Assembly (NCBI GenBank): GCA_023381615.1
Contig: JAMCQL010000065.1
Span: forward strand, 15,424-79,423
Origin: Bacteroidota bacterium
Lineage (GTDB): Bacteria > Bacteroidota > Ignavibacteria > Kryptoniales > JAKASW01
Length of the DNA: 64,000 nucleotides
Reading direction: 5' to 3'
Made by a program: the position numbers and the translations under genes. Within the stretch, counting starts at the first letter, position 1. Each line of letters starts with the position of its first letter. Below, in pieces: positions 5,884 through 53,520 of this stretch. The notes under the pieces are model-generated. The model was not told the origin of the DNA and searched no databases. It saw only the letters and a program-made list of their open reading frames with translations.

Positions 5884-6066
5884 GCCACGAGCTTTCCTGT
5901 CCGCCATCTTCCTGGCGGAAGCTCGTGGAACAGTGGGACGCCCCCTGCTGAGCCGGAGGCTCATGCGCCTCTGGCGCAGGGTTTTTACCCTGAAACGCAT
6001 TGGGTTCGGGGCTAAAGCCCAATTGTTTCTTGTGCGCTGCCACGACCTAAAGGTCGTGGCTATTGA
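5884..6066. repeat. REP-like palindrome cluster with nested insertions
   Basis: GCCACGAGCTTT[24 bp]AGCTCGTGG (5884-5928), GGGCTAAAGCCC, GCCACGACCTAAAGGTCGTGGC (6039-6060), and a 30-bp double hairpin at 5949-5978. Confidence 0.8.
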
Positions 6067-6324
6067 TTCAACCGCTTGAGTAAGCCATTACCTGCTGAAC
6101 TACTATCAAACGAGGATGAGTCGCATTCGCTGGAAATTTCCGCAGGAAATCTTCAAAAGTCTGTCTGACCTGCCACCGGTTATCGTATAAGCGAGCACGT
6201 CTGAATAATTGCAAGTTTGAAATTGACTCTCTATTTCTTTAGCTTTCTGAACAAACTTTATCTCGTATGAGGAGTTTGAATTATTTCACAACTTTGACCG
6301 TATCACAAAATAGCAGAAACTCTT

Positions 6325-7095
6325 ATGGAAAATTTTGAAGGAACAACAGCAATTGTAACCGGTGCTTCAAGCGGCATCGGCAGAGCAACTGCTAAGGAAT
6401 TTGTGAAGTCGGGAGCCAGCGTCGTTGCGTTCGCACGGAACCTGTCTCATCTCCAGTCATTGCGCGATGAATGCGCGACCGAAAAAGGAAAGTTTCTCCT
6501 TCTACAGGGAGACGCGACAAAAGAAGCTGATCGCAAGAAGTGCGTGGACACTGCCGTCAACGAATTCGGTGGCATCGATGTGCTTGTTCAGGCGGCCGGG
6601 ATAATCGGCAGCGGCACAATTGAGAACACCACGGAATCGCAGTGGAACGAGATGATGGATGTAAACCTCACATCGGTCTACAGAATGATGCAGCTCGCAT
6701 TGCCGTCTATCATCAACAGAAAAGGAAACATTGTAAACGTTTCGAGTGTTACGGGAACGAGAGCATTTCCAAACGTTCTTGCTTACTGCGTCAGCAAAGC
6801 CGGCGTCGATCAGCTTACAAGATGTTCTGCGCTCGAGCTCGCGCCCAAAGGAGTGCGTGTAAATGCGGTGAACCCCGGAGTTGTTGTAACAAACTTGCAC
6901 CGCAACAGCGGTATGAATGAAGAGAGCTATTCCAGGTTTCTTGAACATTCAAAGACAACTCATCCGCTCGGGAGAGTCGGGACGCCGGAGGAAATTGCAG
7001 ACCTAATTATTTTTCTCGCTTCTGAAAAAGCAGCTTGGATTACCGGAGTAACTTACAGCATTGACGGCGGACGCTCGCAAACTTGTTTCAGATGA
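6325..7095 (+). CDS. Classical SDR oxidoreductase
   Basis: TGASSGIG, NVSS, YCVSK catalytic motif, VRVNAVNPG. Confidence 0.93.
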   Translation: MENFEGTTAIVTGASSGIGRATAKEFVKSGASVVAFARNLSHLQSLRDECATEKGKFLLLQGDATKEADRKKCVDTAVNEFGGIDVLVQAAGIIGSGTIENTTESQWNEMMDVNLTSVYRMMQLALPSIINRKGNIVNVSSVTGTRAFPNVLAYCVSKAGVDQLTRCSALELAPKGVRVNAVNPGVVVTNLHRNSGMNEESYSRFLEHSKTTHPLGRVGTPEEIADLIIFLASEKAAWITGVTYSIDGGRSQTCFR

Positions 7096-7116
7096 AACTA
7101 AAATGAGAGGTACAAT

Positions 7117-33545: not shown

Positions 33546-33555
33546 TGAAAAGTTC

Positions 33556-33821: not shown

Positions 33822-33843
33822 AGTGAAAATTCTGGAGATGTAA

Positions 33844-34035: not shown

Positions 34036-34083
34036 TAGAAAACTTCACTTTGAATATTTTTTTCATTTCCAAAGAGAACCAAT

Positions 34084-35782: not shown

Positions 35783-35811
35783 ATTTCAGCGTATTCCAAG
35801 GAAGCTCAATT

Positions 35812-36909: not shown

Positions 36910-36937
36910 TTTCAAAACTCCTTTCCCGACGTCCGCC

Positions 36938-38824: not shown

Positions 38825-39294
38825 TTGAAGTGCAAATAAAGTTGAAGGATTACGTTTGTGTAGACTCCGCAGACGACGTCGTCGAGCATTATATAAATGC
38901 CGCCGTTCTTCTTATCGAAATAACTTGCGGGGTACGGCTTGAAAATGTCGAGCATTCTGAAAATAAAAAATCCAATCGCCGCGAGGATAAGTTGCTTTGG
39001 CAAGAAAACCAATGAAATCCACATTGCAACTATTTCATCTATTACAACCCGCGATGGGTCGTGCCCATATACTTTTTCCATTCTGCCCGCCGCGTAAGTT
39101 CCCCAGACGAAGAATACGAGAATCGCCGGAACAATCACATAAAATTTTTCGAATCCATGAATGAAATAGATGAGTAAACCGACGACCGTGCCCGCAGTGC
39201 CGGGAGCAACCGGCGAGAGACCGCTTCCTAATCCGGTTGAAACTAACTTATCGAGAAAAGTAGCCTTAATGTCACTCAGATTCTGTTCTTCCAC
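38821..39294 (-). CDS. pgpA: Phosphatidylglycerophosphatase A
   Basis: APGTAGT, DPSRVVIDE, FRMLDIFKP, MLDD. Confidence 0.93.
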   Translation of the reverse strand: MEEQNLSDIKATFLDKLVSTGLGSGLSPVAPGTAGTVVGLLIYFIHGFEKFYVIVPAILVFFVWGTYAAGRMEKVYGHDPSRVVIDEIVAMWISLVFLPKQLILAAIGFFIFRMLDIFKPYPASYFDKKNGGIYIMLDDVVCGVYTNVILQLYLHFK

Positions 39295-39877
39295 TAACAG
39301 ACCGAAAGAAAGAATGAACTATTTTGAAATTCTCAATCAGGTACTGCAATCCCGTTCCAAGCGTGAGGATAGTAACCACAAACATGGAGTAATAAAGCAC
39401 ATTCTTATTGAGAATCACGTTGATAATCGGTGAAAACTCTGCGACGGAATTTTTAAAAACAACCGCGAGCAATACCCCGTAAATAAATACCATCTGCGCA
39501 AATGTCTTCACTTTCGCGCTGTAATTTGTATGAAGTGTACACCCGCGCAGCTCAGAAAACGAACGGAGCAAAGTAATAGAAATGTCGCGGGCGACGATCA
39601 CCCAGACCATCCACCATTCAACCATGCCTAACCATGCAAAGGCTATGAATGCCGCCGAAGTCAAAATCTTGTCCGCAAGCGGATCGAGGAAGACTCCCCA
39701 TTTAGTGACATTCCCGGTTTTACGCGCGACCCAGCCGTCATACCAATCTGTCAGAGCCGCGACAGCGAAAACAAGAACAGAGACCTGTTTCAAGACCAAA
39801 CGCTCACCAATGAACAACAAAACGAATACTGGGGTCAGTAAAATTCTGAGAATTGTAAGTTGGTTTGGTAACGTCAT
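39272..39877 (-). CDS. pgsA: CDP-diacylglycerol--glycerol-3-phosphate 3-phosphatidyltransferase
   Basis: LPNQLTILR, TDWYDGWVAR, FLDPLADK. Confidence 0.93.
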   Translation of the reverse strand: MTLPNQLTILRILLTPVFVLLFIGERLVLKQVSVLVFAVAALTDWYDGWVARKTGNVTKWGVFLDPLADKILTSAAFIAFAWLGMVEWWMVWVIVARDISITLLRSFSELRGCTLHTNYSAKVKTFAQMVFIYGVLLAVVFKNSVAEFSPIINVILNKNVLYYSMFVVTILTLGTGLQYLIENFKIVHSFFRSVSGRTESE

Positions 39878-39914
39878 CCTGACACAATTTAAGTTTGAAT
39901 AGAATGGAGGTCAA
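39878..39914 (-). promoter_or_regulatory. Putative promoter for a leaderless pgsA transcript
   Basis: TTGACC-17-TAAATT-8 nt-ATG. Confidence 0.6.
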
Positions 39915-39977
39915 GTCGGTCGGAGCGATTTAAGATTCGGGTGCTATGACCCAAATGCTCGAATATTCGCACGTCAA

Positions 39978-40012
39978 TTGAATTTGAGTCATTAACGGAA
40001 TATTTTTAACTA
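39978..40012 (+). promoter_or_regulatory. Putative promoter for a leaderless amidohydrolase transcript
   Basis: TTGAAT-17-TATTTT-6 nt-ATG. Confidence 0.5.
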
Positions 40013-41263
40013 ATGACAGATAGAATCCTTCGGTCGCCAGAGGCTTTGCTGAAGGCGTGCCTTTCGCTTTCAAGAAAAGTCTTCCCGGAAATTGTAAAAC
40101 TAAGACGCCAACTCCATCAGTATCCCGAGCTGGCTTTTCAGGAAATCAATACGGGAAAACTTATTGCACAAGAGCTTAGTAAACTCGACATCCGCGTGAA
40201 AAAGGGAGTCGGAAAAACCGGGCTTGTCGGAATTCTTAAAGGCAACGGAAATGCGGGAGTAGTCGCGCTGCGCGCCGACATGGACGCTTTGCCAATCATT
40301 GAAGAAAGCGGCGTTCCCTTCACAAGTAAAAACACCGGCAAGATGCACGCCTGCGGACACGATGCTCACATGGCTATGCTCATCGGAGCGGCAAAGATTT
40401 TGTCTCAACTCAAGAATGAAATCCGCGGCACCGTGAAATTCATTTTCCAACCGAGCGAGGAAAAAAATCCGGGCGGCGCACCATCAATGATAAAAGACGG
40501 CGCTCTCTCCGATCCGGATGTGGATGTTATTTTCGGACAGCACATTACCGCTGATATTCCTGCCGGCAAGTTCGGATTCAGAGCAGGTCCACTGTTGGCG
40601 TCGGCAGACGAGATTTATTTTACTGTCATCGGAAAAGGCGGGCACGGCGCAAAGCCTCATGAAACCATTGATCCCGTTTTAATTGCCGCGCAGATTATCA
40701 CTTCACTGCAAAGCGTCATAAGCCGCATGAGAGATCCGCTCGAGCCATCGGTTCTTACAATTGGCTCGATCCACGGCGGAACTGCCCCGAACGTTATCCC
40801 GGACTCCGTAAAACTCTCCGGAACTTTGAGAACGATGAACGAAGTGTGGCGGAAGAAGGCACTCGGACTCATAAAACGAACGGCTGAAGATTGCGCAAAA
40901 AGCTTCGGAGGAAAATGCAAAGTGGAAATCAGCCACGGCTATCCTGTTCTCGTGAATTCGGAGAAGGAAACCGAACAAGCCCGAAGCTCCGCCGAATCGC
41001 TTTTCGGTAGAAGTTCTGTTTTGCCGGTGCCGCCGGTAATGGGCGCAGAAGATTTTGCTTACTTCCTGCAAAAAATACCGGGGACATTTTGGTGGATAGG
41101 AGCCGGCAACAAGAAGAGTGGCGCAGCCGCGTCAATTCATAACTCGAAGTTTAAGATCGACGAAACCGCGATGATGCACGGTTCAGCTTTCCTTGCTTAT
41201 CTCACCATCGAATACTTGTCCCAAAGGGATCCATTCGGAAAGCAGCGTGAACGCAGCCGCTAA
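40013..41263 (+). CDS. M20D family amidohydrolase
   Basis: LHQYPEL, RADMDALP, MHACGHD, FQPSEE, GAEDF. Confidence 0.93.
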   Translation: MTDRILRSPEALLKACLSLSRKVFPEIVKLRRQLHQYPELAFQEINTGKLIAQELSKLDIRVKKGVGKTGLVGILKGNGNAGVVALRADMDALPIIEESGVPFTSKNTGKMHACGHDAHMAMLIGAAKILSQLKNEIRGTVKFIFQPSEEKNPGGAPSMIKDGALSDPDVDVIFGQHITADIPAGKFGFRAGPLLASADEIYFTVIGKGGHGAKPHETIDPVLIAAQIITSLQSVISRMRDPLEPSVLTIGSIHGGTAPNVIPDSVKLSGTLRTMNEVWRKKALGLIKRTAEDCAKSFGGKCKVEISHGYPVLVNSEKETEQARSSAESLFGRSSVLPVPPVMGAEDFAYFLQKIPGTFWWIGAGNKKSGAAASIHNSKFKIDETAMMHGSAFLAYLTIEYLSQRDPFGKQRERSR

Positions 41264-44114
41264 AGAAAACATCTCCAAGCTTCTCCAGAAAGTCTTTGAA
41301 TTAGTTGTCAATTCCGGCGCGGACGTCAACCCGACGGAGTATATTGGAAAAATCGAGCAGCGGAGCGCAGCGCTGCCGGATCAATTCATGGCGCTGAATA
41401 ATCTCGAACGATTTCTTGCCGCAACACCCAATTCGGCCTCCATTTTATCGGACTTCTCGAAGAACGAAAAACTTCTTGGCGATTTCATGAATATCGTTTC
41501 AACGAGCCAGTACCTCGCAGATATTTTCGTGCAGCACCCTTCGTATTTTCGTTACCTGTTTTCTCCGTTAGGAATAGAATCCCAGCTCAATCCCGACTTC
41601 CTGCTTTCTGAACTTTCGAGGCAAGCTGAGATATACAAAGATGTCTCTCATAAAAGCGATTACATCAGAAGAATTTACAAACGCGAAATACTTAGAATCG
41701 GCGGGCGCGACATTTGCGGCCGGGATAATATCATAGACACCACGCTGCAAATTTCACAATTGGCTGAATCGATTCTGAGAGTCTCTTTCGAAATAACTGC
41801 TGATGAGTTCAAAGAAAAACGTGGGATTTCTCCGCCACAGATAAGTTGTATTGCGCTCGGAAAATTTGGCGGCAGCGAACTCAATTACAGTTCCGACATC
41901 GATTTACTTTTTCTTTATTCCGTGGCACAGGACAAAAGCGACCACGATGCTTCGGAACAGGCGAACTATTTCGTGAGCCGGTTGATAAAACATCTAACGT
42001 CGGAATCTGTCGAGGGACATCTCTACAGGATTGATTTGCGGCTTCGCCCTGACGGCGCCGCCGGTGCAGTGGCGCAAAGTCTCGAGAGCGCAATTGCTTA
42101 TTATGAATCTCGCGGCGAACTCTGGGAAAGACAGATGCTGATCAAAGCGCGGCATGCTGCGGGAGACGAAACAGTCAGCCAGACATTCTTGAATCATCTT
42201 AGGCCGTTTATTTACCCGCGAACTTGGCTGGAAAATCCTCTCGACGAAATCCCGCGGATGAAGATCCGAATCGAGACCGCCAATCAGAGTGAACTGAACA
42301 TTAAACTTCGCCGCGGCGGAATTCGCGACATTGAGTTTATCGTGCAGGCGCTGCAATTACTCAATGGCGGCTCGCGTCCGAATATTCAAACCGGCAGCAC
42401 ACTAAACGCGATCACGCTCCTCGAGAAAAGCAAGATCATAAACAAGCAAGAGGCTTCCCTGCTTTCCAACGCTTACAAATTTTTCAGGCTGGTGGAACAC
42501 AGGCTTCAGCTTTTCAAAAACCTTCAGACGCACACTTTGCCATCAGACGCGGCGGAATTCAGAAATTTGTCGAAACGGTGCGGTTACAAGAACGAACGAA
42601 AGTTTAGGAATGAACTGTTCGGGTACTTCGACGCTGTCGCAAATTTATTCAACAACGTCTTTCATATCGAGCAGTCCATTGAGAGAACAGAGATCGAACA
42701 ATTTCTGGAAGGCTCGATCAATGACCGGAGAACTCGCCGCGTTATGGAAAACTATGGTCTCGTGAACACGGAAGAGAGTTACAAAAATGCTCAATTTCTT
42801 TCGCGCGGCATCACGCGGGCGGGAGACGTTGAGTTCCCCGCTGGAGTAACCAAGGCGTTTCGGGAAATCGCGCCGCAGCTTTTCGAAGACATAAAGCTGA
42901 CAGTGGATCAGGACATGACGCTGAAGAATCTCTCGCGGTTGGCGCCGTCGGTAAAAAGCTTGGAGGTCTTTTATAAATCTCTCGCCGACGAGCATTTCAG
43001 AAAGTTGATCCTGACACTTTGCTCGAAGGGAACGCGGTTTGTCGATTATTTGACGGTCGAGCCCTTGCTTCTCGACCTGATCATTTCCCCGGAGAGGCTT
43101 CTTGATACAGAAATCTTCTTCACAGATTTCTTACCCGTGCCGCTCCTGAAGGAATTCAACGAGATCAAGTTGGGCATGTTGTATTTGCTTGGCGAAATTT
43201 CACTTTCCGAAATGCACAGCAAGTGGACTAACGTAGCCGAAAGATTTTTCGTGCATGCAATCGAAAAGATTTTTCCCAAGAGCCGGCCTGCAGTTATTGC
43301 AGGCGGGAAATTTGGATCGAGAGAAATGTCCTTCATGTCGGATCTCGATGCCATTTTCATTCTTCCGGACAAACTTGCACGAAACAAGCCATCGTTCGAA
43401 AAGAAAATTCCAAAAATTCAGGAATCGCTCCTCGACGAAAATGGCAATCCGGTGTTTTCGGTCGACTTGAAACTACGTCCGGAAGGAAAAAGTGCGCCGC
43501 TTCTGATGACCGAATCCGAATACGCGCAGTATTTGGAGAAGCGTTTGTCCGTTTGGGAAGTAATGTCAATGACGAGGTTCAGAAATCTTTCTACTTCAGA
43601 AAATATCTTTTCAATGATCACGAGAACCGTCGGGAGCTTCAAGCTGACTCAGTCATCTCTGAAAGAAATTGCCTCGCTCTACAATAAAGTCATTCAGAGC
43701 AAGAGTTACTTCGATGAGATTGACGTAAAGTTTGGAGACGGCGGCATGTTTGCAGTTGAGTTTCTGGTCCAGACGCTCGCGCTTAATAGTGCTGAAGCGT
43801 TGATGGAATCTTTTCCGACTGCGATAGTCAATATGATAGAAAAGCTGAAGGATATTGATGCGATATCTGAAGAAATTGCCGACGAAGTGAAAGAAAGCTA
43901 CGAGTTTTACAGAATGATAGAGTTTTCAAATTACGTCTCATTGTCGAAGACGAACCACAAGATTCCGCATGATGAGCGTGAACTTACTTCACTTGCGGCG
44001 CATCTCGATTTCAAAAACCCGGATGAGTTCATGGACAGTCTCAAATCACGGATGAGACGAATGAGTTCCCTGTTCAAGAAAGTAACCGCAGATCTCATTG
44101 CGGCAGCAGGCTGA
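41247..44114 (+). CDS. glnE: Glutamine synthetase adenylyltransferase/adenylyl-removing enzyme-like
   Basis: Two nucleotidyltransferase repeats (GKFGGSELNYSSDIDL...DLRLRPDG; GKFGSREMSFMSDLD...DLKLRPEG); probable GTG start at 41247. Confidence 0.85.
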   Translation: MNAAAKENISKLLQKVFELVVNSGADVNPTEYIGKIEQRSAALPDQFMALNNLERFLAATPNSASILSDFSKNEKLLGDFMNIVSTSQYLADIFVQHPSYFRYLFSPLGIESQLNPDFLLSELSRQAEIYKDVSHKSDYIRRIYKREILRIGGRDICGRDNIIDTTLQISQLAESILRVSFEITADEFKEKRGISPPQISCIALGKFGGSELNYSSDIDLLFLYSVAQDKSDHDASEQANYFVSRLIKHLTSESVEGHLYRIDLRLRPDGAAGAVAQSLESAIAYYESRGELWERQMLIKARHAAGDETVSQTFLNHLRPFIYPRTWLENPLDEIPRMKIRIETANQSELNIKLRRGGIRDIEFIVQALQLLNGGSRPNIQTGSTLNAITLLEKSKIINKQEASLLSNAYKFFRLVEHRLQLFKNLQTHTLPSDAAEFRNLSKRCGYKNERKFRNELFGYFDAVANLFNNVFHIEQSIERTEIEQFLEGSINDRRTRRVMENYGLVNTEESYKNAQFLSRGITRAGDVEFPAGVTKAFREIAPQLFEDIKLTVDQDMTLKNLSRLAPSVKSLEVFYKSLADEHFRKLILTLCSKGTRFVDYLTVEPLLLDLIISPERLLDTEIFFTDFLPVPLLKEFNEIKLGMLYLLGEISLSEMHSKWTNVAERFFVHAIEKIFPKSRPAVIAGGKFGSREMSFMSDLDAIFILPDKLARNKPSFEKKIPKIQESLLDENGNPVFSVDLKLRPEGKSAPLLMTESEYAQYLEKRLSVWEVMSMTRFRNLSTSENIFSMITRTVGSFKLTQSSLKEIASLYNKVIQSKSYFDEIDVKFGDGGMFAVEFLVQTLALNSAEALMESFPTAIVNMIEKLKDIDAISEEIADEVKESYEFYRMIEFSNYVSLSKTNHKIPHDERELTSLAAHLDFKNPDEFMDSLKSRMRRMSSLFKKVTADLIAAAG

Positions 44115-44125
44115 GGGAAAAGTAT

Positions 44126-46120
44126 TTGGAAAGCACGCAAAGGACTTTCCCGACAAAAGGGACTCCTAAACAAAAAGTATCCTCGAAGCTAATCGATTCG
44201 GGCAGACTAAAATTTGAGAGAACCGATTTTCTTATTGCCGGTTCGCTGGCGGCGTTCTCTTTCTTCGTTTATTTGCTCACGATGTCGAGAAGCATTCCAC
44301 CCATCGACGGCGGAGAGCTAACAACCGTCCTCTGGACACTCGGCATCGCTCACCCAACAGGCTACCCACTTTTTACGCTTCTCGGATATGCATTTGTCCA
44401 CATTCCAATCTTTCGTGAAGTTGCAATGCGGGCAAACTTGTTCGCCGCGGCATGCACAGCGCTTGCCGGCGGAATTTTCTATTTTGTGTTCCAGCGGGCG
44501 CAGTTGTTGCTTGCGCTAGGTGAGCCTACTCTAAACAAAAAGTCGATGAGTTCGAATCAAGAACAATCGAAGAATTTTAAGAGCCCCACGGATGACGTCT
44601 CTCCTTTTCGTTTAGCTTCGACGATTGGTGCACTTGTGCTCATCTTTTCGAGGACGTTCTGGGACCAGAGCACGTCGGTGGAAGTCTATCCGCTCCAGCT
44701 TTTACTTTTTGCATCTATTCTGACGGTGTGGCTCGGATTTTATGCGCGCCAGACGAAATCACGCGGGTTTTTTGCAGGCTTGTTCTTGGGGTTAGGCTTC
44801 ACCAACCACATGACAACGGTTCTGACCGTTCCTGCGCTTCTATTTCTGTTGTTCTCGAGCTACAGACAGAGAAAATTCGAATGGCGAATTCTCTATTTCG
44901 TAATATTCGGTGGAGCTTTAGCTTCCCTGCTGTACATTTATCTTCCTCTGCGCGCTTCGCAGAATCCGATTCTCGATTGGGGAAATCCGGATACTCTCCA
45001 AAGATTTTTCTGGCACGTTACCGGCAGACAATTCAGGACGTGGATGTTCAGCTCGTGGGATGTGTTTCAACACCAATTGGGAGTTTTCTTTTCAAGTCTT
45101 TATCCGGAATTTAGGATTACTCTTGTTGTGGCAATTATAGGAATTGTCATTTCAATTTTCTCATATAGAAAATATTTCTGGTGGACGATCCTTCTTCTTA
45201 TCGGCGACCTGATCTACGCGGCAAATTACAACATCCATGACATCGCCAGTTATTTCCTGCTTGCTTATATTGCGCTGACACTTTTCGCGGTAATCGGATT
45301 TCGATTTGCGGTTAACATTTTGCTTAAGTTTTTCCACGGGAATGTTGCGGTCGCCGCTCTGCTGGTTTTGTTCCCTGCGTTCTCAGTGATTGCAAACTTC
45401 AGCGAAGTCGACGAAAGCAAAGATTATTCGGTGGAAATGTACACACGAGATATCTTGACGAGTCTCCCGCAAAATTCTGTCGTGATCTCATACCAGTGGG
45501 ACACTTTTGTTTCGGCATCTCTGTATTATCAAAACGTAGACAAACTCCGCAAGGACATAATTGTCGTTGATAAAGAATTGCTGAGACGATCGTGGTACGC
45601 AGCAGAAGTGCACAATCGTTACGCTTTTCTTTTTCCGAAAGATGATCCTGTTTATAAGGCTTATCAGGATAACCTGCGGCTTTTTGAAAACGATCTGCCA
45701 TACGATCCCAATTCTATCGAGCATAGTTACTCCAATTTTATTCGCGAGATAATTTTAGGCTCGCTGCAGAATGAAAGAGAGGTCTTTGTTGGACCTGAGA
45801 TCGAGGATCAATATCTCTATGGCCTGAACAAAGTCCCTTACGGCTTACTGTTCGAAGTCAAAACAGATACGGACTATGTTCCATATAACGCGGCTGGATT
45901 GGACGGCTTCCGGGCAGCGGAGAAAATACACAGTGACTATTCAAAGCAAATCTTAGGTTTCTATACAAGAATGTCCCTTGCGAGGGCGGCGTACGAATAC
46001 AATCATAAATATCTTAATCTTACTTTATCGTGGCTCGATAGGGCGCTTCAAGTCGATCCAACCTTGCAAGCCGCACAGACAGCGAAACTCCAAATATTGC
46101 AGGATCTTAAATCGAAATGA
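44126..46120 (+). CDS. DUF2723 / TMEM260-like multi-TM GT-C protein
   Basis: D.GEL, GIAHPTGYPLF, EVY, NH, YLPLRA..NP..DWGNP, TPR-like tail. Confidence 0.8.
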   Translation: MESTQRTFPTKGTPKQKVSSKLIDSGRLKFERTDFLIAGSLAAFSFFVYLLTMSRSIPPIDGGELTTVLWTLGIAHPTGYPLFTLLGYAFVHIPIFREVAMRANLFAAACTALAGGIFYFVFQRAQLLLALGEPTLNKKSMSSNQEQSKNFKSPTDDVSPFRLASTIGALVLIFSRTFWDQSTSVEVYPLQLLLFASILTVWLGFYARQTKSRGFFAGLFLGLGFTNHMTTVLTVPALLFLLFSSYRQRKFEWRILYFVIFGGALASLLYIYLPLRASQNPILDWGNPDTLQRFFWHVTGRQFRTWMFSSWDVFQHQLGVFFSSLYPEFRITLVVAIIGIVISIFSYRKYFWWTILLLIGDLIYAANYNIHDIASYFLLAYIALTLFAVIGFRFAVNILLKFFHGNVAVAALLVLFPAFSVIANFSEVDESKDYSVEMYTRDILTSLPQNSVVISYQWDTFVSASLYYQNVDKLRKDIIVVDKELLRRSWYAAEVHNRYAFLFPKDDPVYKAYQDNLRLFENDLPYDPNSIEHSYSNFIREIILGSLQNEREVFVGPEIEDQYLYGLNKVPYGLLFEVKTDTDYVPYNAAGLDGFRAAEKIHSDYSKQILGFYTRMSLARAAYEYNHKYLNLTLSWLDRALQVDPTLQAAQTAKLQILQDLKSK

Positions 46121-47223
46121 TATTCCTCAGTTTACTCAAAGTCTTCGCCATTCTATATCTCGCTGAACTCGCTTTATATTCCTACGCTGCTTATCGTTCC
46201 CGCAGACAAAGTAAGCGAGCGAATAAACTCACCCCGCTCCCAAAAGTGTCGGTCGTTGTCGCCGCGAAAGATGAAGAGAAAAATCTGCCTTCATGCCTTG
46301 ACTCGCTTGTGAAGCTCGATTATCCAAAAGACCTTCTTGAGATAATTGTAATCAACGACCTCTCTTCCGATTCAACTCCGACCATCATCGACGATGTTGC
46401 ACGCAAATTTAATTTCGTGAAACGAGTTGACGCTGTTGAAAACAATTTGATGCGCGGCAAAGCCAATGCGCTTTCTCAGGGAATAGACAAAGCGAACGGC
46501 GAGTTCGTCTTCTTGACAGATGCAGATTGCACTGTTCCTTCCACCTGGATCACAGAGACATTAAAGTATTTCGACGATGCGACCGGCATCGTAGGCGGCG
46601 TTACTCTAATTTCAGATACCGGCAAGCCGGTCTACAGCGTTCAGGCGCTCGATTGGGATTTTCTGCTCAGCGTCGGCGCAGGCGCCGCAACTCTCGGAAA
46701 ACCCATCGCCTGTCTCGGAAACAATCTCGTTTTCAGAAAAAGTGCCTACAAAGAAGTCGGGGGTTACAGAAAAATCAAGTTTAGCGTAACGGAGGATTAC
46801 GCGCTCTTCAAAGCTGTCGCCGAGTCTCGCAAATGGAAATACCGTTTCCCGATGGACAAGCTTACACTTGTCCAAACTCTTCCGGTGGAGACTCTACGGG
46901 AAGTGTTTTCACAGAGAAAACGATGGGCTACTGGAGGCAAAGACACGGGACTCTTCGGATTCCTGACACTTGTGCCCGGTTTTTTCTTCCATTGGCTGAT
47001 TTTATTATCTGTTTTCTCTTCGGTAGGTCTCTTCGCGAAACTTTTTCTGCTGAAGCTGCTGCTGGACGCTTTTTTTGTTTTTCCGACCCTCATGCACTAT
47101 GGAAAAATTGCTCACTTGAAATTCATACTTTATTTTGAGATTTATTACTTAGTTTATGTCGCAATTCTTCCGTTTACTGTCTATTTCGGAAAGGGAATAA
47201 CCTGGAAAGGGCGAAAATACTAA
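46117..47223 (+). CDS. GT2 glycosyltransferase (membrane)
   Basis: TDADC, TED, QRKRW motifs. Confidence 0.88.
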   Translation: MIFLSLLKVFAILYLAELALYSYAAYRSRRQSKRANKLTPLPKVSVVVAAKDEEKNLPSCLDSLVKLDYPKDLLEIIVINDLSSDSTPTIIDDVARKFNFVKRVDAVENNLMRGKANALSQGIDKANGEFVFLTDADCTVPSTWITETLKYFDDATGIVGGVTLISDTGKPVYSVQALDWDFLLSVGAGAATLGKPIACLGNNLVFRKSAYKEVGGYRKIKFSVTEDYALFKAVAESRKWKYRFPMDKLTLVQTLPVETLREVFSQRKRWATGGKDTGLFGFLTLVPGFFFHWLILLSVFSSVGLFAKLFLLKLLLDAFFVFPTLMHYGKIAHLKFILYFEIYYLVYVAILPFTVYFGKGITWKGRKY

Positions 47224-48225
47224 ATGTCTGAATCGTTTGAACGATTCGAGTACATAGAAGATTTTTCAATTTCATGGCGTGAGCTGAGGATACCCCTGCA
47301 CCTGACGCTGTTCCTCATCACTTTATTTACAACCACGCTCGCGGGAGTAGAATGGATCGGAAGAGATCCGTTCAATCTTTTGAATTTTAAATTTGGATTG
47401 GCTTACAGCTTTTCTCTCCTCCTTGTTCTCGGCACGCACGAGTTCGGACATTTCTTTTATTCCCTCAAGCATCGTGTCAGGGCGACTCTGCCTTACTTCA
47501 TACCGTTCCCCATTTTTCCCGGCATGTTAAACTTCGGGACACTCGGCGCCGTCATACGCACGAAAACAGTAATTCCTTCGCGCAAGGCGATATTCGATAT
47601 CGGAGTTTCAGGACCAATAGCGGGCTTCATCGTGAGCGTAGCAATTTTGATTTTTGGTTTCACGCACTTGCCGTCAAGAGAGTTTCTGGTTCATATTCAT
47701 CCAAATTATAATTTCGCGACGAATACGGTTCCCGATTCCGAAGGCATTCCTCTTGCTTTCGGCAACACCATACTCTTTAAATTATTGGAAGTCCTTTTCA
47801 CCAATCCGCATAAAGAATTCGTTCCCCCGATGACTGAGATTTATCACTACCCTTTTCTATGTGTCGGATGGTTCGGACTATTCGTTACCGCGATGAATCT
47901 GCTCCCGATCGGACAGCTTGACGGCGGACACATGATCTACGCAATGTTTGGCAAAGCCCACAGAAAAATCGCGAGAGTGTTTTTCTTTATAATACTTATC
48001 GTCGGTCTGCTGGGACTTCTTCCGCTTGCCGGAGTCGACGCGAACCTTGGCTGGACCGGATGGCTGTTCTGGTGCTTGATCTTATTCTTCGTCATAAAGC
48101 TCGACCACCCGCCGGCGTTAGATTCGAGTCCGCTCGATACTAAAAGAAAAATAGTCGGCTGGTTAACAATTCTTATTTTCATCGTTTCGTTTTCGCCAAC
48201 TCCTTTTACAATCTCACTGAGGTAA
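47224..48225 (+). CDS. Site-2 protease (M50)
   Basis: HEFGH, GPIAG, NLLPIGQLDGGH. Confidence 0.92.
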   Translation: MSESFERFEYIEDFSISWRELRIPLHLTLFLITLFTTTLAGVEWIGRDPFNLLNFKFGLAYSFSLLLVLGTHEFGHFFYSLKHRVRATLPYFIPFPIFPGMLNFGTLGAVIRTKTVIPSRKAIFDIGVSGPIAGFIVSVAILIFGFTHLPSREFLVHIHPNYNFATNTVPDSEGIPLAFGNTILFKLLEVLFTNPHKEFVPPMTEIYHYPFLCVGWFGLFVTAMNLLPIGQLDGGHMIYAMFGKAHRKIARVFFFIILIVGLLGLLPLAGVDANLGWTGWLFWCLILFFVIKLDHPPALDSSPLDTKRKIVGWLTILIFIVSFSPTPFTISLR

Positions 48226-48227
48226 TT

Positions 48228-49031
48228 TTGAAGAAAACACTTTTCGTACTATCACTCAGTTTACTGATCGCTGCATGTCAAAAGGCTGATAATGTCATAA
48301 TCGACAGCTCGCAGCCAATCAACGTGCAACTGACATACTTTGACAAAGACAGCATCGACATTGCCCGGTATATCAGCAATACTTCAACAAAACCAACGAT
48401 TAGCGACAGCTTTCAAGTGGTCTTAAGCTCAACACAGAATTTTGCATATCTTGATGTGAAAGTAGAAAACGATTCCGGCATGACCTTGAATGATGTTTCG
48501 TATTCTACTGCCGCGGGGCGCTTAGTATCAGGAACGATTACGACAGCCTTTTCAAATGTTTACGTCGGCGATATTACCTATACCTTTACTGCATACAACA
48601 AACAGGCTTCACCGGGAGACTTCGCGATAAAGTTGGTGCGGCTTTTCAATTCAAAGAACCAGGCACCCGTTATAGACAGCGTATCGGTGCCTGACTCCGT
48701 ACAGATAGATCCAACATCCAATGTTGTCTTTAATCTTTATGCGTTCGTCCACGATGCGGCGGGCCTGAGCAATATTGCAAAAGTATATTTTAACACGACC
48801 AAGCCTGATGGGACCCCATCTTCCGGAAATCCCTTCATGATGTATGATGATGGTGGTGCAAGCGGCGCCCCCGGTGATGACGACGCGGTCGCAAATAACG
48901 GTACCTACACTCTGGCAATCCAACTTCCGCCAGGCACAGCGATTGGAACCTATGGGTTCACATTCTATGCAGTTGACCGCAGCGGCCTCTCAAGCACACC
49001 GATCTCACGCAATATTAAGGTATATAAATGA
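48228..49031 (+). CDS. Lipoprotein with an Ig-like C-terminal domain
   Basis: Lipobox IAAC; MYDDG...DAVANNGTYT acidic loop (choice-of-anchor-X-like). Confidence 0.7.
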   Translation: MKKTLFVLSLSLLIAACQKADNVIIDSSQPINVQLTYFDKDSIDIARYISNTSTKPTISDSFQVVLSSTQNFAYLDVKVENDSGMTLNDVSYSTAAGRLVSGTITTAFSNVYVGDITYTFTAYNKQASPGDFAIKLVRLFNSKNQAPVIDSVSVPDSVQIDPTSNVVFNLYAFVHDAAGLSNIAKVYFNTTKPDGTPSSGNPFMMYDDGGASGAPGDDDAVANNGTYTLAIQLPPGTAIGTYGFTFYAVDRSGLSSTPISRNIKVYK

Positions 49032-50557
49032 AATCAACTCTCGCTCTTGCAATTGCCTTTCTCGTCACCAGCGCCAATGCGCAATTTCTCAAACAGACTT
49101 ACAAACTGGATGGACTGCCCTCACAGCCTTCAAGTAATTCAATCAGTCAAATATTGATAGTGAACGGAGAAGTCTATATCGGAACTGACAAGGGATTGAA
49201 CATGACCAACGGCGGCGGACTCGCTCTTCAAACGAACATCGGGACCAATGGCCCAACAGGTGTAAGTGTAAATGCAATCGCCGTCAAAGGAGATACAATA
49301 GTTGCGGCAGTTTCGACCACAATGCAGCAAAGTGGAACAACCTACCCTGTGGGCAAAGGGCTCTATGCTTCAACTGATGACGGAACAACGTGGACTCAGG
49401 AGCCGCAAAGCCTTGACTCACTCGCTGATTCAACTGTCACTTTCGGAAATAACGTCCTGACTGCACTTCCCGTTACGACAGACGTTAACAACATTTCGTA
49501 CTCGCTTGCTTTTTATAAAGGTTATCTCTACGCCGCCAATTTTGCAGGCGGATTGAGAAGAAGCGCCGATCTCGGCAAAACATGGCAAAGAGTTGTTCTG
49601 CCACCTGACTATCTCAACTACATAACCGAAGACAGCAGCTATACTTTCCAATTGTCTCCTGTCGCCGGCGCCCTCACCTCGGAAAGCAATCTGAATCACA
49701 GAGTCTTCTCCGTCTATTCGGATGGCGACAGTGCATTGTACGTCGGCACAGCGGACGGAATAAACAAGACCACCGACAATGGCTATTCCTGGTATAAGTT
49801 CACTCACCAAAATCAGTCAAGTCCAATATCGGGAAATTTCGTCGTCTCGATAACTGCTCAAGACTATGGCACTGAACACAACATCTGGGCGGCGACAGTG
49901 AATGCAAACGATCCAACCGAAATGCCGGCTTTGAGTTACACGACTGACGGCGGTGCAAGCTGGCATTACATCCTTGCAGGGCACTTCTTTCACAGTGTCG
50001 CATTTCAGGGAAACATCGTGTATGGTGCGTCTGATGACGGGCTTTTCAGAACTTCAGACCTGGGACGCTCTGCCCAAGTGATTACCAACATCTTTGACCC
50101 AACAACAAGACAGTCGATTTTATCCCAAGCTTTTTATGCGGTTGCAACGAACGGAGATTCGATATGGGTCGGATCAGGCGATGGCCTCGCTATGGGAATC
50201 GATAACGGGACAGGATTTGATTTGAGTCAGTGGCATGTTTTCAGAGCATTCGCCAGCGTTGCCGCCACAAATTCGACGTACTTTTATCCGAATCCATTTT
50301 CCCCGCAGCTCGATGTTGGTAGAATACATTATAATGTCAAGACTCCGAACAGCACGGTAACGGTCAGGATCTACGACTTTGCAATGCACATCATTTACAC
50401 TTTGACGCAGAACGCGGCGCGCAGCGCAGGCGAACAGGATGAAGTTTGGAACGGCATGGACTCAACCGGAAAGACGGTCGACAACGGAGTCTATTTCTAC
50501 AGTGTAGTCATAAATAACCAAGGCCCGATCTGGGGAAAAATACTGGTGGTGAGATGA
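49028..50557 (+). CDS. Secreted beta-propeller (BNR repeats) with a FlgD/T9SS-like C-terminal domain
   Basis: S.D.G.TW repeats; YPNPFSP...IYD...WNG.D..G..V.NGVYFY. Confidence 0.78.
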   Translation: MKSTLALAIAFLVTSANAQFLKQTYKLDGLPSQPSSNSISQILIVNGEVYIGTDKGLNMTNGGGLALQTNIGTNGPTGVSVNAIAVKGDTIVAAVSTTMQQSGTTYPVGKGLYASTDDGTTWTQEPQSLDSLADSTVTFGNNVLTALPVTTDVNNISYSLAFYKGYLYAANFAGGLRRSADLGKTWQRVVLPPDYLNYITEDSSYTFQLSPVAGALTSESNLNHRVFSVYSDGDSALYVGTADGINKTTDNGYSWYKFTHQNQSSPISGNFVVSITAQDYGTEHNIWAATVNANDPTEMPALSYTTDGGASWHYILAGHFFHSVAFQGNIVYGASDDGLFRTSDLGRSAQVITNIFDPTTRQSILSQAFYAVATNGDSIWVGSGDGLAMGIDNGTGFDLSQWHVFRAFASVAATNSTYFYPNPFSPQLDVGRIHYNVKTPNSTVTVRIYDFAMHIIYTLTQNAARSAGEQDEVWNGMDSTGKTVDNGVYFYSVVINNQGPIWGKILVVR

Positions 50558-51483
50558 AAACTTTCTCTTTATTGCTGATGCTCTGCTCTGTCTCTTTTGC
50601 TCAGAGTTATCCCGGCAGCTTTGCACGGATCGGACTGAATGCAAAAGGAATGTCACTCGGAAATTCGTTGTCGGCGGTGACAACAGGCAATGTCTACAGT
50701 TTTTATAATCCTGCACTTGCGTCGTTCCAGGACGGCGGGAGTGTTTCCGCATCTGTCGCCCTTTTATCATTGGACAGGCAGTTGAACGTTTTGACATACA
50801 CCCAAGGCGTTAAACCAACTGCCGGTATATCTTTGGGAATAATAAACGCCACAGTCTCCAACATCGACGGCAGAGACAACGACGGCGTGCACACGACAAA
50901 TCTCTCGACAAGCGAAAACTTGTTCTACTTCAGTTTCTCAAACAGGTTCATGGAAAAGCTATCTCTTGGCGTGAGTCTAAAAATGTACTACTACAAACTT
51001 TATTCAAGCCTGACTTCCACTTCCATCGGTTTTGATTTTGGCGGGGTCTATCAACTCTCAAATTCTTTTTCTATTGGTGTTGCAGCAACTGACATTGGTG
51101 AAAGCTACCATTGGGATTCTTCAAAGCTATATGGAACCGACGGGTCGAATTTCTCAACTCCATTCCCGCATGTTTTCCGAATTGGCGCCGCTTATAATTT
51201 GCCGCAGTACGATCTGTCTGTTTCAGCTCAGTACGATATTGCACCGGCGCCTCTCAGCGCGCTCAGGGCTGGCATCGAGTTCACTCCGCTCGACGTCCTT
51301 GCGCTCCGGGCAGGACTCTCCGCCGGAAATGAGCAATATGTCGGGACCAAAGTTACTCCATCGTTCGGTTTCGGAGCAAAACTTGCCTTCCTCGACTTCA
51401 CGCCCGAAATCAACTATGCTTATGTCTTCGAACCGTTCACCCCTTACGGCATACAAACTTTGACATTAATTTTTGGGTTTTGA
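50554..51483 (+). CDS. PorV/PorQ-like outer membrane beta-barrel
   Basis: Signal peptide, AKGMSLGN, FYNPA, terminal F. Confidence 0.72.
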   Translation: MKTFSLLLMLCSVSFAQSYPGSFARIGLNAKGMSLGNSLSAVTTGNVYSFYNPALASFQDGGSVSASVALLSLDRQLNVLTYTQGVKPTAGISLGIINATVSNIDGRDNDGVHTTNLSTSENLFYFSFSNRFMEKLSLGVSLKMYYYKLYSSLTSTSIGFDFGGVYQLSNSFSIGVAATDIGESYHWDSSKLYGTDGSNFSTPFPHVFRIGAAYNLPQYDLSVSAQYDIAPAPLSALRAGIEFTPLDVLALRAGLSAGNEQYVGTKVTPSFGFGAKLAFLDFTPEINYAYVFEPFTPYGIQTLTLIFGF

Positions 51484-52394
51484 CTTCCATGAAATATCTA
51501 AATTCGATTTTCGCTTTTCTGATACTTGCGTCTTCGACGGCTTTCTCCCAAGCTGGCAGTGCAGGTTTTCAGATTCTGAGACTTGGTTATTCCGCACGCG
51601 ATCTTTCGCTCGCTAACTCCGCCGATGCAATCACAAAAGAGCCAATAGCGGTGTTCATTAATCCAGCTGGACTTGCTTCGGATGAAAGCGAGAATGGCAT
51701 CGGCTTAGACTTCATGCTGACACACAGAACTTACATTGCAGGAACGACCATCGATTTATTTGGAACGCGTTTCGAGAGCGGGGGCATTTCTTTCGGCACA
51801 AGTCTGCTTCTTTCAAGTGTTCCGGATATTGAAGTCAGGACTGTCCCCGGCGACCCACAAGCGACATTTTCCGCCAAAGATTTCGTGTTTGCCGCTGGAG
51901 TCGCGCGCAAATTCGACAAAATGGACATCGGCGTTTCAGCAACGTATCTGTATGAGAAACTTTTCGTCTACGAATCGCAGGGATTTGCTTTCAATGGCGG
52001 AGTAAAGTATTCACCTGCGCAGAATATTGAGTTGGGACTTTCCGCAGGAAATTTCGGATCAACGACGGCAATGCTCTCGCAGACTATCGCTCTTCCAATC
52101 TTCCTGCGCGTCGGAGGAAGCTACACTAAGACTTTAGACGATAACTTCTCTGTAACCGGTTTCCTCGGCGCTGCAACGTACAAGTCCGGCGGCATCACAC
52201 CGAGCGTTGGAGCGGAATTCAACTATCAGAATATACTCAAACTCAGAGCGGGCTACGCTTCGGGCAGCGACATAACAGGATTTTCTTTTGGAGCCGGCGT
52301 GAACTACAATTTCTTAAGATTCGATTACTCTTACGTCCCGATGAAACTCGATTTCGGCAATAGCCAAACGTTTACATTGTCATTCATTCTCTAA
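51480..52394 (+). CDS. PorV/PorQ-like outer membrane beta-barrel
   Basis: AGFQILRLGYSAR, FINPAGL, LRAGY, FDYSY; start may be ATG 51489. Confidence 0.78.
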   Translation: MTSMKYLNSIFAFLILASSTAFSQAGSAGFQILRLGYSARDLSLANSADAITKEPIAVFINPAGLASDESENGIGLDFMLTHRTYIAGTTIDLFGTRFESGGISFGTSLLLSSVPDIEVRTVPGDPQATFSAKDFVFAAGVARKFDKMDIGVSATYLYEKLFVYESQGFAFNGGVKYSPAQNIELGLSAGNFGSTTAMLSQTIALPIFLRVGGSYTKTLDDNFSVTGFLGAATYKSGGITPSVGAEFNYQNILKLRAGYASGSDITGFSFGAGVNYNFLRFDYSYVPMKLDFGNSQTFTLSFIL

Positions 52395-52395
52395 G

Positions 52396-53520
52396 ATGTC
52401 CAAAGGATCCTTCGGACTTGATGTTCTCATCGTCGTCAGCTCAGATCCTCGATACGACACGCGGAGCACAAAGTATCTAAGCGCTCTCCTCGAAGCCGGA
52501 TTTAAAGCAAAGGTTGTAGGAATCTCCTCGGACGGAACGGCAGAGAAAAAAGAAGAGTTGGTCAGAGCGCCCGTCAGCGCGAAGGGCGGAAAGAGCTTCT
52601 TTCTCGAGTTCTACCAGAAAGTAATACCGGAAATGTATAGATCGCCTGCAAAGATCGTAATTGCAGGTGATTTGTTTTCCCTGCCCCCTGCAATCATAAA
52701 CAAACACCGATACTCTAAAGGCGCAAAACCCGTTAAGCTGATCTACGACTCGAAAGAACTTTACGAAGAGCTTCCCAGTCTTAAAGCAAAGCGCACCAGC
52801 TTCCTCTTTTGGAATCTCGTAGAGAAAAGCTCCATAAGATATGTCGATGCAGTACTAACGGTAAATCAATCTATCGCCGATATTCTTGAAGCGAGATGGC
52901 ATTTGCCGACAAGCGTGGTAATGAACGTGCCTGATCTGAGCAATCCGCCAATACCGAAGGATAAGTCTTTTGATAAAATCTTTCTGGCATTCTCAGGAGG
53001 GTTGCAGCGTGGGCGTGGTCTGCACAATCTGATAAATTTATTGACAGTTTTGCCGGAGAAATATGAACTGCGTTTCGTGGGCGATGGTGTTTTGCGCAAA
53101 GAATTGGAACGGCAGGCTCTCTCGCTGGAACTCGAGAAGAGAGTTCATTTCGTCGGAAGAGTGAATAACTCCGAAGTAGTGAACGAACTTTCCAAATCGC
53201 ACATCGGCATTTACTTAATGGAAAACACAGGACTCTGCCACTATCTCGCTCTGCCGAACAAGTTTTTTCAATTCATTTCGGCAAGACTTCCTGTTATCGT
53301 GTCGAACTTTCCGGAGATGGAAAAGATTGTGAATCAATTCCAGATAGGGTTCGTTGTTGATCCATCAAATATCGAGGAAATTGCCAAAGCTGTGCTTGAG
53401 TTGACAAAAGATGAAGGAACCTATCACAAACTTGCTGTAAACTGCGAGAAAGCGGCAAAAGTATTGAATTGGCAGGTCGAGAAAGAGAAATTTCTAAAAG
53501 CGGTACGTAACTTAGTTTAG
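52396..53520 (+). CDS. GT4 glycosyltransferase
   Basis: YDSKELY, GGLQRGRGL, LPNKFFQFI..RLPVI. Confidence 0.85.
   Translation: MSKGSFGLDVLIVVSSDPRYDTRSTKYLSALLEAGFKAKVVGISSDGTAEKKEELVRAPVSAKGGKSFFLEFYQKVIPEMYRSPAKIVIAGDLFSLPPAIINKHRYSKGAKPVKLIYDSKELYEELPSLKAKRTSFLFWNLVEKSSIRYVDAVLTVNQSIADILEARWHLPTSVVMNVPDLSNPPIPKDKSFDKIFLAFSGGLQRGRGLHNLINLLTVLPEKYELRFVGDGVLRKELERQALSLELEKRVHFVGRVNNSEVVNELSKSHIGIYLMENTGLCHYLALPNKFFQFISARLPVIVSNFPEMEKIVNQFQIGFVVDPSNIEEIAKAVLELTKDEGTYHKLAVNCEKAAKVLNWQVEKEKFLKAVRNLV
52399..52416. repeat. 18-bp element, copy 6 (immediately after the ATG of the GT4 gene)
   Basis: TCCAAAGGATCCTTCGGA, the exact reverse complement of copy 1. Confidence 0.85.

Follow-up and report, generated by a model that had tools for sequence, protein, structure and literature searches.

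Short hairpin elements in an ordinary chromosome

The window considered here is a stretch of 64,000 nucleotides (nt) from contig JAMCQL010000065.1 (C23:15424-79423 in our numbering), part of an Ignavibacteria-class metagenome-assembled genome (MAG) of 3.37 Mb, 86 contigs, and 47% G+C. In gene content the window is ordinary chromosome, carrying an exopolysaccharide/glycosyltransferase cluster, the run recX-recA-thpR-cinA-pgpA, glnE, and hisD/hisC. Set into and between such genes are very short palindromic elements, built largely of hairpins that begin with T and end with A, and it is the mobility of these elements that concerns us. A preliminary description had drawn attention to several of them, and every element it named stands at the coordinates it gave when the sequence is reread. 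We refer to the window's own genome as G000, to its relatives by other G numbers (G012, G001, G010, and so on), and to contigs by C numbers; open reading frames (ORFs) are greedy calls of at least 90 amino acids (aa) starting at the first start codon. The elements and related sites, in window coordinates, are as follows.

5896-5919, no strand: 24-mer, CCTG followed by a TCCGCC-N8-GGCGGA hairpin; intergenic, read from the sequence.
5949-5978: 30-mer of two abutting 15-nt hairpins, TGAGCC-GGA-GGCTCA and TGCGCC-TCT-GGCGCA; belongs to the 15-mer family.
30216-30236: 21-mer, TC-GAA-GA followed by TCCCG-TTTG-CGGGA; in the UDP-GlcNAc 2-epimerase gene (29626-30825, minus strand).
33480-33497: 18-mer TCCGAAGGATCCTTTGGA; in a stretch without an ORF of at least 100 aa.
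33556-33573: 18-mer TCCGAAGGATCCTACGGA; likewise in a stretch without such an ORF.
35839-35856: degenerate 18-mer TCCACGTGATCCTTCGGA in the 3' tail of recA; a 14-nt insertion (at 35844) present only in the window when set against three relatives.
36927-36955: 29-nt window-only insertion between thpR and recA, containing the 15-mer TCCGCC-TTA-GGCGGA (36932-36946).
36992-37007: TCCCGAC-CT-GTCGGGA hairpin in thpR; a net 6-nt insertion (36999-37004) relative to three of three relatives.
37094-37111: 18-mer TCCGAAGGATCCTGGGGA, within the 3' part of the minus-strand gene thpR (36938-37552); an 18-nt gap in G010 (aligned as 37095-37112).
38039-38056: 18-mer in cinA (37553-38824, minus strand), read as Ser-Thr-Gly-Ser-Phe-Gly.
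40027-40059: hairpin-rich 33-nt insertion at the 5' end of the M20 peptidase gene; a 33-nt gap in G001 and G012.
41219-41239: 21-mer, TCCC-AAA-GGGA followed by TCC-ATTC-GGA, at the 3' end of the M20 peptidase gene; a 13-nt gap in G001 and G012 (at about 41232).
52399-52416: 18-mer that immediately follows the ATG of a plus-strand glycosyltransferase gene (52396-53520); the copy is old.
Behind 44101, 44184, and 44216: three sites without an element here that hold 18-mers in the related strain X10.

The 18-mer pattern yields eight strand matches at five places in the window, against 0.00 expected from 100 shuffles.

The elements are insertions and differ between strains

The elements are insertions into otherwise conserved sequence. 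The cinA gene illustrates the point: the window's CinA protein carries six extra residues (STGSFG) that are absent from the six orthologues in a comparison of seven CinA proteins, and the 18-mer at 38039-38056 falls on an exact 18-nt gap in six related loci (G001, G010, G012, L057, L058, and L060). For genome-wide counts of such empty sites, G000 was aligned with G012, a relative represented by one complete contig (97% complete, approximately 72% nucleotide identity to G000); 2.46 of the 3.15 Mb of G012 were used, and 1.30 Mb aligned. Insertion lengths in this alignment peak at 18 nt (25 in G000 and 14 in G012) and at 21 nt (16 and 20, respectively), with further peaks at 24, 27, and 30 nt. 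The 18-mer with a GGATCC center makes up 18 of the 25 18-nt insertions in G000, two of these copies being degenerate. Conversely, G012 has lineage-specific insertions of its own, of 15, 21, 30, and 33 nt and with the same grammar, and the family of the window's 21-mer at 30216-30236 is among those inserted there.

Aligned stretches hold 41 of the 115 18-mers of G000: G012 cleanly lacks 15 of them, shows partial gaps at 10, and has bases opposite 16. Just one of the 41 is the same element in G012, namely, the copy at 52399, which is identical at the orthologous site of G012 and matches at 17 of 18 positions in G001; G010 has 18 unlike bases there. Given that this copy is shared with relatives, some copies must be old. 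We considered whether the copy is under special constraint and rejected the idea, as local identity is 83% and an 18/18 match is thus unremarkable. The strict 18-mer pattern occurs 93 times in G000, 0 to 7 times in each of 24 relatives from the genus (13 of which have at least one copy), and not at all in 16 genomes from other genera.

In the clean empty-site cases there is no target duplication. The elements thereby lack the hallmark of miniature inverted-repeat transposable elements (MITEs) of the DDE type, namely, a target-site duplication at terminal inverted repeats. Some of the 18-nt gaps are shifted in register by one base; we discarded these shifts as a mechanistic clue, since at 72% identity a single substitution in the flank suffices to produce them.

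Do the elements still move? Contigs of four other public sequencing runs were placed on window positions 33000-52900. An X10 contig (1554 nt, depth 5.84, approximately 5% differing letters) carries extra 18-mers, CGCAGGATCCTTCGGAGA, TCCGAAGGATCCTACGGA, and TCCGAAGGATCCTGCGGA, behind positions 44101, 44184, and 44216, and a second X10 contig carries an extra 21-mer behind 41226, inside the 21-mer at 41219-41239. The elements therefore differ between closely related strains and are still moving. We hold with high confidence that they are mobile.

These observations bear on a quite different explanation, according to which nothing moves at all: the motifs would arise in place by point mutation and be kept by selection or drive as, for example, uptake sequences, protein-binding palindromes, or Ser-x-Gly-Ser-x-Gly linkers. 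The strong frame bias (58 of 81 18-mers in frame 0) is what such an origin would give, the copy at 52399 is conserved in G012 and G001, and the cinA target in these two genomes already reads TCCGAAGGA. Set against this are the clean 18-nt gaps at orthologous sites, by which an in-place origin is largely refuted, as well as the insertion polymorphism between strains, the occurrence of the same sequence in copies outside ORFs, and the covariation of the stems, which a sequence-specific binding site would forbid. We consider this explanation very improbable. As for the cinA site itself, the empty form in G012 and G001 (TCC|GAAGGA) is a 9-nt module, a single case of its kind, and after insertion the right half of the 18-mer and its flank together form TCCTTC-GGA-GAAGGA.

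Families of elements share one grammar

In G000 the 18-mer TCCNNNGGATCCNNNGGA has 115 copies, and the 12-mer TCCGAAGGATCC has 119. Nearly all copies of the 18-mer read TCC-RNA-GGA|TCC-TNY-GGA, where the loop is almost always GAA or TTC in one half and varies at two positions in the other; the reversed order, with the TNY half first, does not occur among the listed copies. A second family, the 15-mer T(SM)GCC-N3-GGC(KS)A, has 99 copies with diverse loops. Composites of 21, 24, 27, 30, and 39 nt are built from the same T...A hairpin modules, and some of them are nested. Other frequent hairpins are TCCCGAC-GAAG-GTCGGGA (25 copies), TCCCGAC-AAA-GTCGGGA (13), TGAGCC-TCA-GGCTCA (13), and TCCGCC-AAA-GGCGGA (9). 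Clearly separate from all of these are AACCTT-GCG/GAC-AAGGTT (20 and 18 copies) and the CTAC...GTAG hairpins.

The preliminary description had proposed that such families, although different in sequence, share a grammar of concatenated T...A hairpins in which pairing is kept while stems differ, loops are often GNA, and total length is a multiple of three (3n). The first two parts of this proposal are borne out genome-wide. We counted chains of at least two directly abutting perfect hairpins (stem of at least 3 bp and loop of 3 or 4 nt), grouped them by outer pair, and compared the counts with two block shuffles. T..A chains number 792, against 453 and 449 after shuffling (1.75-fold), and of the 792 junctions, 189 read GGATCC. 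For A..T chains there is no enrichment (358 versus 438 and 423), while C..G chains (385 versus 275 and 300) and G..C chains (460 versus 267 and 287) are enriched less than T..A chains. Pairing was assessed with the frame NNNGCC-N3-GGCNNN, whose outer triplets are fully complementary at 134 of 833 sites versus 19.4 expected. The main outer stems at these sites (TCC/GGA, 34; TGA/TCA, 28; TCA/TGA, 20; and TGC/GCA, 10) are all T initial; the stem types are thus compensatory variation in which the T..A pair is kept.

The remaining two parts of the proposal have to be narrowed. GNA loops characterize the 9-nt modules and not the 15-mers, whose loops are of many kinds: the single module TCCNNNGGA occurs at 1418 sites in G000 versus 971 expected, and GAA/TTC loops lead this excess (265), followed by AAA/TTT (121) and GCA/TGC (117). 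Similarly, length in multiples of three is a strong bias and not a rule. Among TC..GA chains, 173 of 240 (72%) have 3n length, and the common combinations are 9+9 (112 copies), 9+18 or 18+9 (32), and 10+11 or 11+10 (12); hairpins of 17 nt and composites of 22, 28, and 34 nt also exist. The bias is the same inside ORFs (121 of 168) and outside them (52 of 72); it thus belongs to the successful families themselves and is not confined to copies in genes.

The doublet can also be loaded. A nested form, TCC-RNA-GGATC[...]C-TNY-GGA, has 38 copies with 16, 21, 54, or more than 120 nt at the GGATCC center; the inner units are hairpins, including CTAC..GTAG and CGAC..GTCG types, and some have GACG motifs. 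Could the bare 18-mer then be no mobile unit but the collapsed shell of longer nested elements, which would be what truly moves? The range of inner segments in the 38 loaded copies, and the likeness of their inner units to repetitive extragenic palindromic (REP) sequences, would fit such a relationship. However, the new 18-mer sites in X10 hold exactly 18 nt, the bare 18-mer supplies 18 of the 25 18-nt insertions relative to G012, bare copies outnumber loaded shells by 115 to 38, and the same doublet logic appears in 21-, 24-, 27-, and 30-mers that have no cargo. We regard the collapsed-shell explanation as quite unlikely.

Folding was predicted with nearest-neighbor DNA energies and compared with shuffles. 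The 15-mer at 36932-36946 folds at -5.9 kcal/mol (z score, -4.9), and the 30-mer at 5949-5978 forms two independent hairpins at -11.9 kcal/mol (z scores, -3.8 and -4.1). In the 21-mer at 30216-30236, the second hairpin alone folds, and the TC-GAA-GA module is unsupported.

Target, position, and reading frame

When the 18-mers are oriented with the TTC half 3', their 5' flank reads C-Y-T-S; at position -4, 59 of the 70 asymmetric copies have C. We take this to be a target preference because relatives mostly have the C in place already at their empty sites. A T-rich left flank and an A-rich right flank also accompany the 15-, 21-, 24-, 27-, and 30-mers, so that the families share one insertion behavior, including the lack of target duplication.

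The 18-mers lie largely within genes and cluster toward protein termini: 81 of 115 are in ORFs, 58 of these 81 in frame 0 (Ser-x-Gly-Ser-x-Gly), with 26 in the first decile of the ORF and 18 in the last, although the in-ORF, first-decile, and N-terminal counts are upper bounds because the ORFs were called greedily from the first start codon. Fifteen of the 115 copies abut ATG or CAT, versus 3.5 expected. In the list of insertions from the G000-G012 alignment, every composite of 22, 28, 37, or 47 nt lies between genes; a handful of further hairpin-type gaps that are not 3n fall in ORFs, where small gaps nearby may compensate.

Y1 HUH enzymes as candidate movers

What moves these elements? The lack of target duplication, the fixed 5' tetranucleotide, and the compensatory hairpin stems together point to single-strand transposition by HUH enzymes, as IS608 and IS91 carry it out. 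G000 has 11 matches to PF01797 (Y1, IS200/RAYT-like, where RAYT stands for REP-associated tyrosine transposase). The proteins on C75, C25, and C16 exceed the NCBIfam cutoff for IS200, and those on C7 and C69 match a REP-associated model best, at scores under its cutoff. The RAYT-like genes on C7 and C23 have REPs of their own on their flanks, AACCTT-GCG/GTC-AAGGTT. The IS200-like genes on C25 and C75 have flanking hairpins of 13 nt (AGTCC-GAA-GGACT, ACCCC-ATC-GGGGT, and ATCCC-TTC-GGGAT) that share the shape of the families described above with different stems, and one 18-mer lies approximately 80 nt from the C75 gene. Homologues of the C25 and C75 genes in G017, G005, G021, G024, G011, G006, and G010 have flanking hairpins of the same shape with yet other stems; AGCCC-GAA-GGGCT is a further example from this set of genes and homologues.

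Two comparisons between genomes connect such stems or elements with Y1 genes. In a comparison of two genomes, the Y1-flanking stems CCCC, ACCC, TCCC, GTCC, CCTC, and CCTT are enriched 1.8- to 5.3-fold in G000 and are not amplified in G012, which has no Y1 gene and in which AGCC and CGCC alone stand out. Across the class, where the 15-mer family is patchy but widespread (the highest loads being G046 with 132 copies, G106 with 94, G147 with 89, and G110 with 81), a strong Y1 match without an internal stop is found in five of five genomes with high 15-mer loads (best E values, 9e-19 to 2e-28) and in none of five with zero load; this contrast was picked post hoc among genomes that are kin and not independent.

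Our preferred account, to which we give about even chances, is that the elements are very small mobile palindromes of a REP/REPIN-like kind (REPINs being REP doublets that form hairpins), filtered by selection to in-frame sites, and that the families with TCC or CCC stems are moved by Y1 enzymes. The basic T...A modules would be TCC-N3-GGA (9 nt), TCCC-N3-GGGA (11 nt), T(SM)GCC-N3-GGC(KS)A (15 nt), and TCCCGAC-N3-4-GTCGGGA (17 to 18 nt). These modules would usually travel as abutting doublets of 18, 21, 24, 27, or 30 nt, and the doublets would take further insertions at the GGATCC center, from which nested forms of 34, 39, 72 nt, and longer would arise. We posit that insertion is roughly blind to frame and that selection purges the copies that shift the frame or disturb the protein fold; as approximately 89% of the genome is coding, families of 3n length and free of stop codons would prosper. 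The TCC/CCC-stem families would be moved as single-stranded hairpins by the Y1 HUH transposases that the genome encodes, as happens in REP/REPIN-RAYT and IS200/IS605 systems, whereas the class-wide xGCC 15-mers may depend on another enzyme or on one that has since been lost.

Several results weigh against this account. G012 has no PF01797 match even though it holds 114 15-mers, the maximum in the genus, and insertions of its own, and G001 has 58 15-mers with a best Y1 match of only E = 7e-9. Over 25 genomes of the genus, 18-mer counts show no co-occurrence with the C25-type Y1 gene, an association that we accordingly rejected: G017 has a 79% homologue and no 18-mers, while G020 and G008 have seven and six copies and no homologue. 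No Y1 gene is flanked by arrays of 18-mers. The 18-mers themselves fold at just -0.2 to -2.2 kcal/mol, no better than shuffles and with stems of only 3 bp, and on these nearest-neighbor energies we rejected the idea of the 18-mer as a stable structure. A bias of orientation toward either the replication or the gene strand was rejected as well. By local GC skew the orientations number 34 and 42 (P = 0.42), in a test made weak by the near-palindromic nature of the elements and by an assembly in 86 contigs; by gene strand they number 22 and 34 (P = 0.14). Base pairing between the left and right flanks was likewise rejected (40 complementary pairs versus 39 expected and 68 versus 63.4, with no covariation), as was a guide-sequence signature, in which a variable loop would covary with the 5' flank and of which none was seen. 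The greedy ORF calls, which make the in-ORF and first-decile counts upper bounds, belong here as well.

Might the elements, then, be moved by something other than a Y1 enzyme? The mover could be another conserved host activity, a recombinase, or an RNA intermediate, in which case the Y1-flanking hairpins would be a separate, ordinary IS200/REP system whose likeness in hairpin shape is coincidental. The 114 15-mers and lineage-specific insertions of G012, the patchy yet class-wide distribution of the 15-mers, the lack of any quantitative relation between copy number and Y1 count within the genus, and the lack of replication-strand bias all favor such a mover, as does the fact that positions 4 and 15 of the 18-mer vary as R/Y, which leaves a G.T pair on one strand. 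However, no candidate enzyme was found; insertion without duplication behind a 5' tetranucleotide is the signature of HUH enzymes, as known for IS608 and IS91; and Y1-type stems are amplified only where Y1 genes exist, in the two genomes compared. An IS91-type Y2 enzyme, which the CTTG-like target had brought to mind, was rejected on the basis of 0 PF04986 matches in G000, G012, G021, and G024, with the caveat that a control panel was likewise without a match; the model itself did pick out one gene in G009. We consider a non-Y1 mover for the elements as a whole somewhat unlikely.

Returning to the preferred account, the Y1 link for the TCC/CCC-stem families stands at roughly even odds, and the 15-mers are possibly moved by something else. 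The preliminary description had gone further, suggesting that one structure-recognizing HUH mechanism spreads several families, with co-occurrence of repeats and HUH/RAYT genes across genomes and strand bias relative to replication among its proposed checks. The 11 Y1 matches, the flanking hairpins of the same shape, the RAYT-like genes with their own REPs, the amplification of Y1-type stems, the covarying stems, and the shared insertion behavior agree with that suggestion. Co-occurrence is poor, with a partial counter-signal in the class-wide contrast and in the stem amplification, and no strand bias was found. A single mechanism for all families is doubtful: the xGCC 15-mers, found across the class, are independent in behavior of the Y1-linked stems.

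A bolder reading may also be entertained, and we hold it only tentatively: the elements might be ultrasmall (15- to 18-nt) "dumbbell" transposable elements adapted to coding sequence, transposing between strains today, and the smallest autonomous-structure mobile DNA known. Two abutting mini-hairpins would stack at their T|A junctions into one short helix with a total length of 3n. The TC.../...GA ends would be unable to create a stop codon at the junction in any frame, almost no stops would occur internally, and insertion behind CYTS without duplication would make such an element a natural generator of Ser/Gly linker insertions. The mover would be a Y1 HUH enzyme that reads hairpin shape and not sequence, or some other Ignavibacteria-wide enzyme.

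Some further observations concern Y1 genes and the hairpins near them. G009 has no Y1 match. A Y1_Tnp-like stretch (E = 5e-10) lies within an ORF of 1287 aa at C41:18438-22298 of G000, and similar long Y1-matched ORFs occur in G005 (1298 aa), G046 (1276 aa), and G129 (1525 aa). In the window, a GCTCC-GTATA-GGAGC hairpin (33528-33542) lies between the 18-mers at 33480 and 33556; GCTCC-GTA-GGAGC hairpins, which have the same stem, flank Y1 genes in G021, G024, and G019.

Relation to known repeats

The elements resemble REP/REPIN-RAYT systems in that both consist of short, high-copy-number palindromes that are often arranged as inverted doublets; the 18-mer, being two inverted 9-mers without a spacer, is itself REPIN-like. 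Several families occur per genome, and there are Y1 genes with flanking cognate hairpins: C7 and C23 have AACCTT-N3-AAGGTT REPs beside their genes, but for the TCC/CCC families such flanking is confined to single hairpins of 13 nt, plus one 18-mer, near the C25 and C75 genes. PMC3116915 describes REPIN doublets together with their RAYTs, and the RAREFAN preprint (10.1101/2022.05.22.493013) treats REPINs as nonautonomous elements replicated by RAYTs. The differences are equally clear. The units here are 15 to 18 nt, whereas the published lengths of REPs are 20 to 40 bp (PMC3733652) or 21 to 65 bp (PMC3184786). The TCC...GGA modules lack the GTAG/CGTC tag, and such motifs appear in the nested inner units alone. 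REPs are mostly extragenic, whereas 81 of the 115 18-mers lie inside ORFs, although PMC3733652 reports REPs within genes and at the ends of proteins, as well as CGTC-tagged REPs in Chlorobi and Bacteroidetes. Finally, copy number here does not follow Y1 genes across genomes.

By description, the cyanobacterial small dispersed repeats (SDRs) appear to be the closest analogue. In Nostoc and its relatives, Elhai and colleagues reportedly described in 2008 (Genome Res 18:1484) SDR families of 21 to 27 nt that have little sequence likeness and a shared predicted structure; these are said to show compensatory changes and nested insertion into their own copies or into a short palindrome, and their mover reportedly was not identified. 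An RNA intermediate is said to have been proposed for them. Nesting and compensatory stems are found here as well. The SDRs belong to another phylum, and the present elements differ from them in having units of 15 and 18 nt, in-frame coding insertion, and a defined 5'-CYTS target.

Two other systems deserve mention. IS608, of the IS200/IS605 group of insertion sequences (IS), makes no target duplication, inserts 3' of a specific tetra- or pentanucleotide, and has hairpin ends that are recognized as single strands. Insertion without duplication and the CYTS target recall this group, as do three IS200-like Y1 proteins that exceed the NCBIfam cutoff; known derivatives of the group are far longer, with distinct left and right ends and subterminal hairpins, and there is no lagging-strand orientation bias here. 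Rickettsia palindromic elements (RPEs) are roughly 100 to 150 bp long, whereas the elements here are modular and of 15 to 39 nt. The likeness lies in in-frame palindromic insertion within ORFs, which in RPEs, according to PMC3733652, leaves proteins that probably still work.

Taken together, the 15- to 18-nt size, the in-frame intragenic dominance, the T|A doublets, the CYTS target, and the strain polymorphism appear to set the elements apart from REP/REPIN, SDR, RPE, and IS200/IS605 repeats. A nonexhaustive literature search, which did not include a search for the exact motifs, found no description of such elements in Ignavibacteria.

Implications and other repeats

As palindromic insertions of 15 to 39 nt, mostly in frame in genes, these sequences belong among the smallest mobile DNA elements described, and if units of 15 to 18 nt truly transpose as such, the known lower size limit of mobile DNA falls. 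They would also represent a selfish element fitted to a genome dense with genes by its 3n length, its lack of stop codons, and a Ser-x-Gly-Ser-x-Gly product that is tolerated at termini and in loops. Do HUH Y1 enzymes recognize the shape of a hairpin and not its sequence? The elements are a tractable case for this question; alternatively, G012, with many elements and no Y1 gene, could indicate some other, novel insertion activity. There are practical consequences as well, in that conserved genes such as recA, cinA, and thpR acquire in-frame indels, which can mislead alignment, phylogeny, and strain typing of Ignavibacteria MAGs, and the elements can break short-read assemblies.

G000 contains several other kinds of repeat. 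Arrays with a period of 102 to 106 nt at C83:121055-121607, C40:31826-32144, and C34:20445-20649 consist of tRNA-like units (T arm, GAAGGTTCGAATCCTTC) with a CCCGAC-N3-GTCGGG hairpin in the place of the anticodon arm; ARAGORN calls one tRNA per region. A repeat of approximately 190 nt at C4:32681-32871, with at least 10 further copies that are 97 to 98% identical, folds at -95 kcal/mol and contains TCCGAAGGA and a 27-mer. In C29 and C41 this repeat is split beside TCCGAAGGA by an element of approximately 165 nt with terminal inverted repeats GAGACTGTGTGAAAA. A CRISPR-like 32-nt repeat, GTCGCGCCCCATGCGGGCGCGTGGATTGAAAC, occurs 16 times, and IS-like repeats of 127 and 161 nt occur eight to nine times.

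In the window, a block of approximately 220 nt (33814-34035) within the ORF-poor stretch 33185-34083 is 77 to 80% identical in G001, G010, and G012, above its surroundings. An Rfam scan of 33100-34150 matched no family; the block could be a small gene or a noncatalogued RNA. Lastly, the 30-nt doublet TGCGCC-N3-GGCGCA + TCAGCC-N3-GGCTGA occurs three times with a 75-nt period at C41:7432-7611 of G023, which suggests a tandem repeat that holds the doublet, possibly in a repeat protein.

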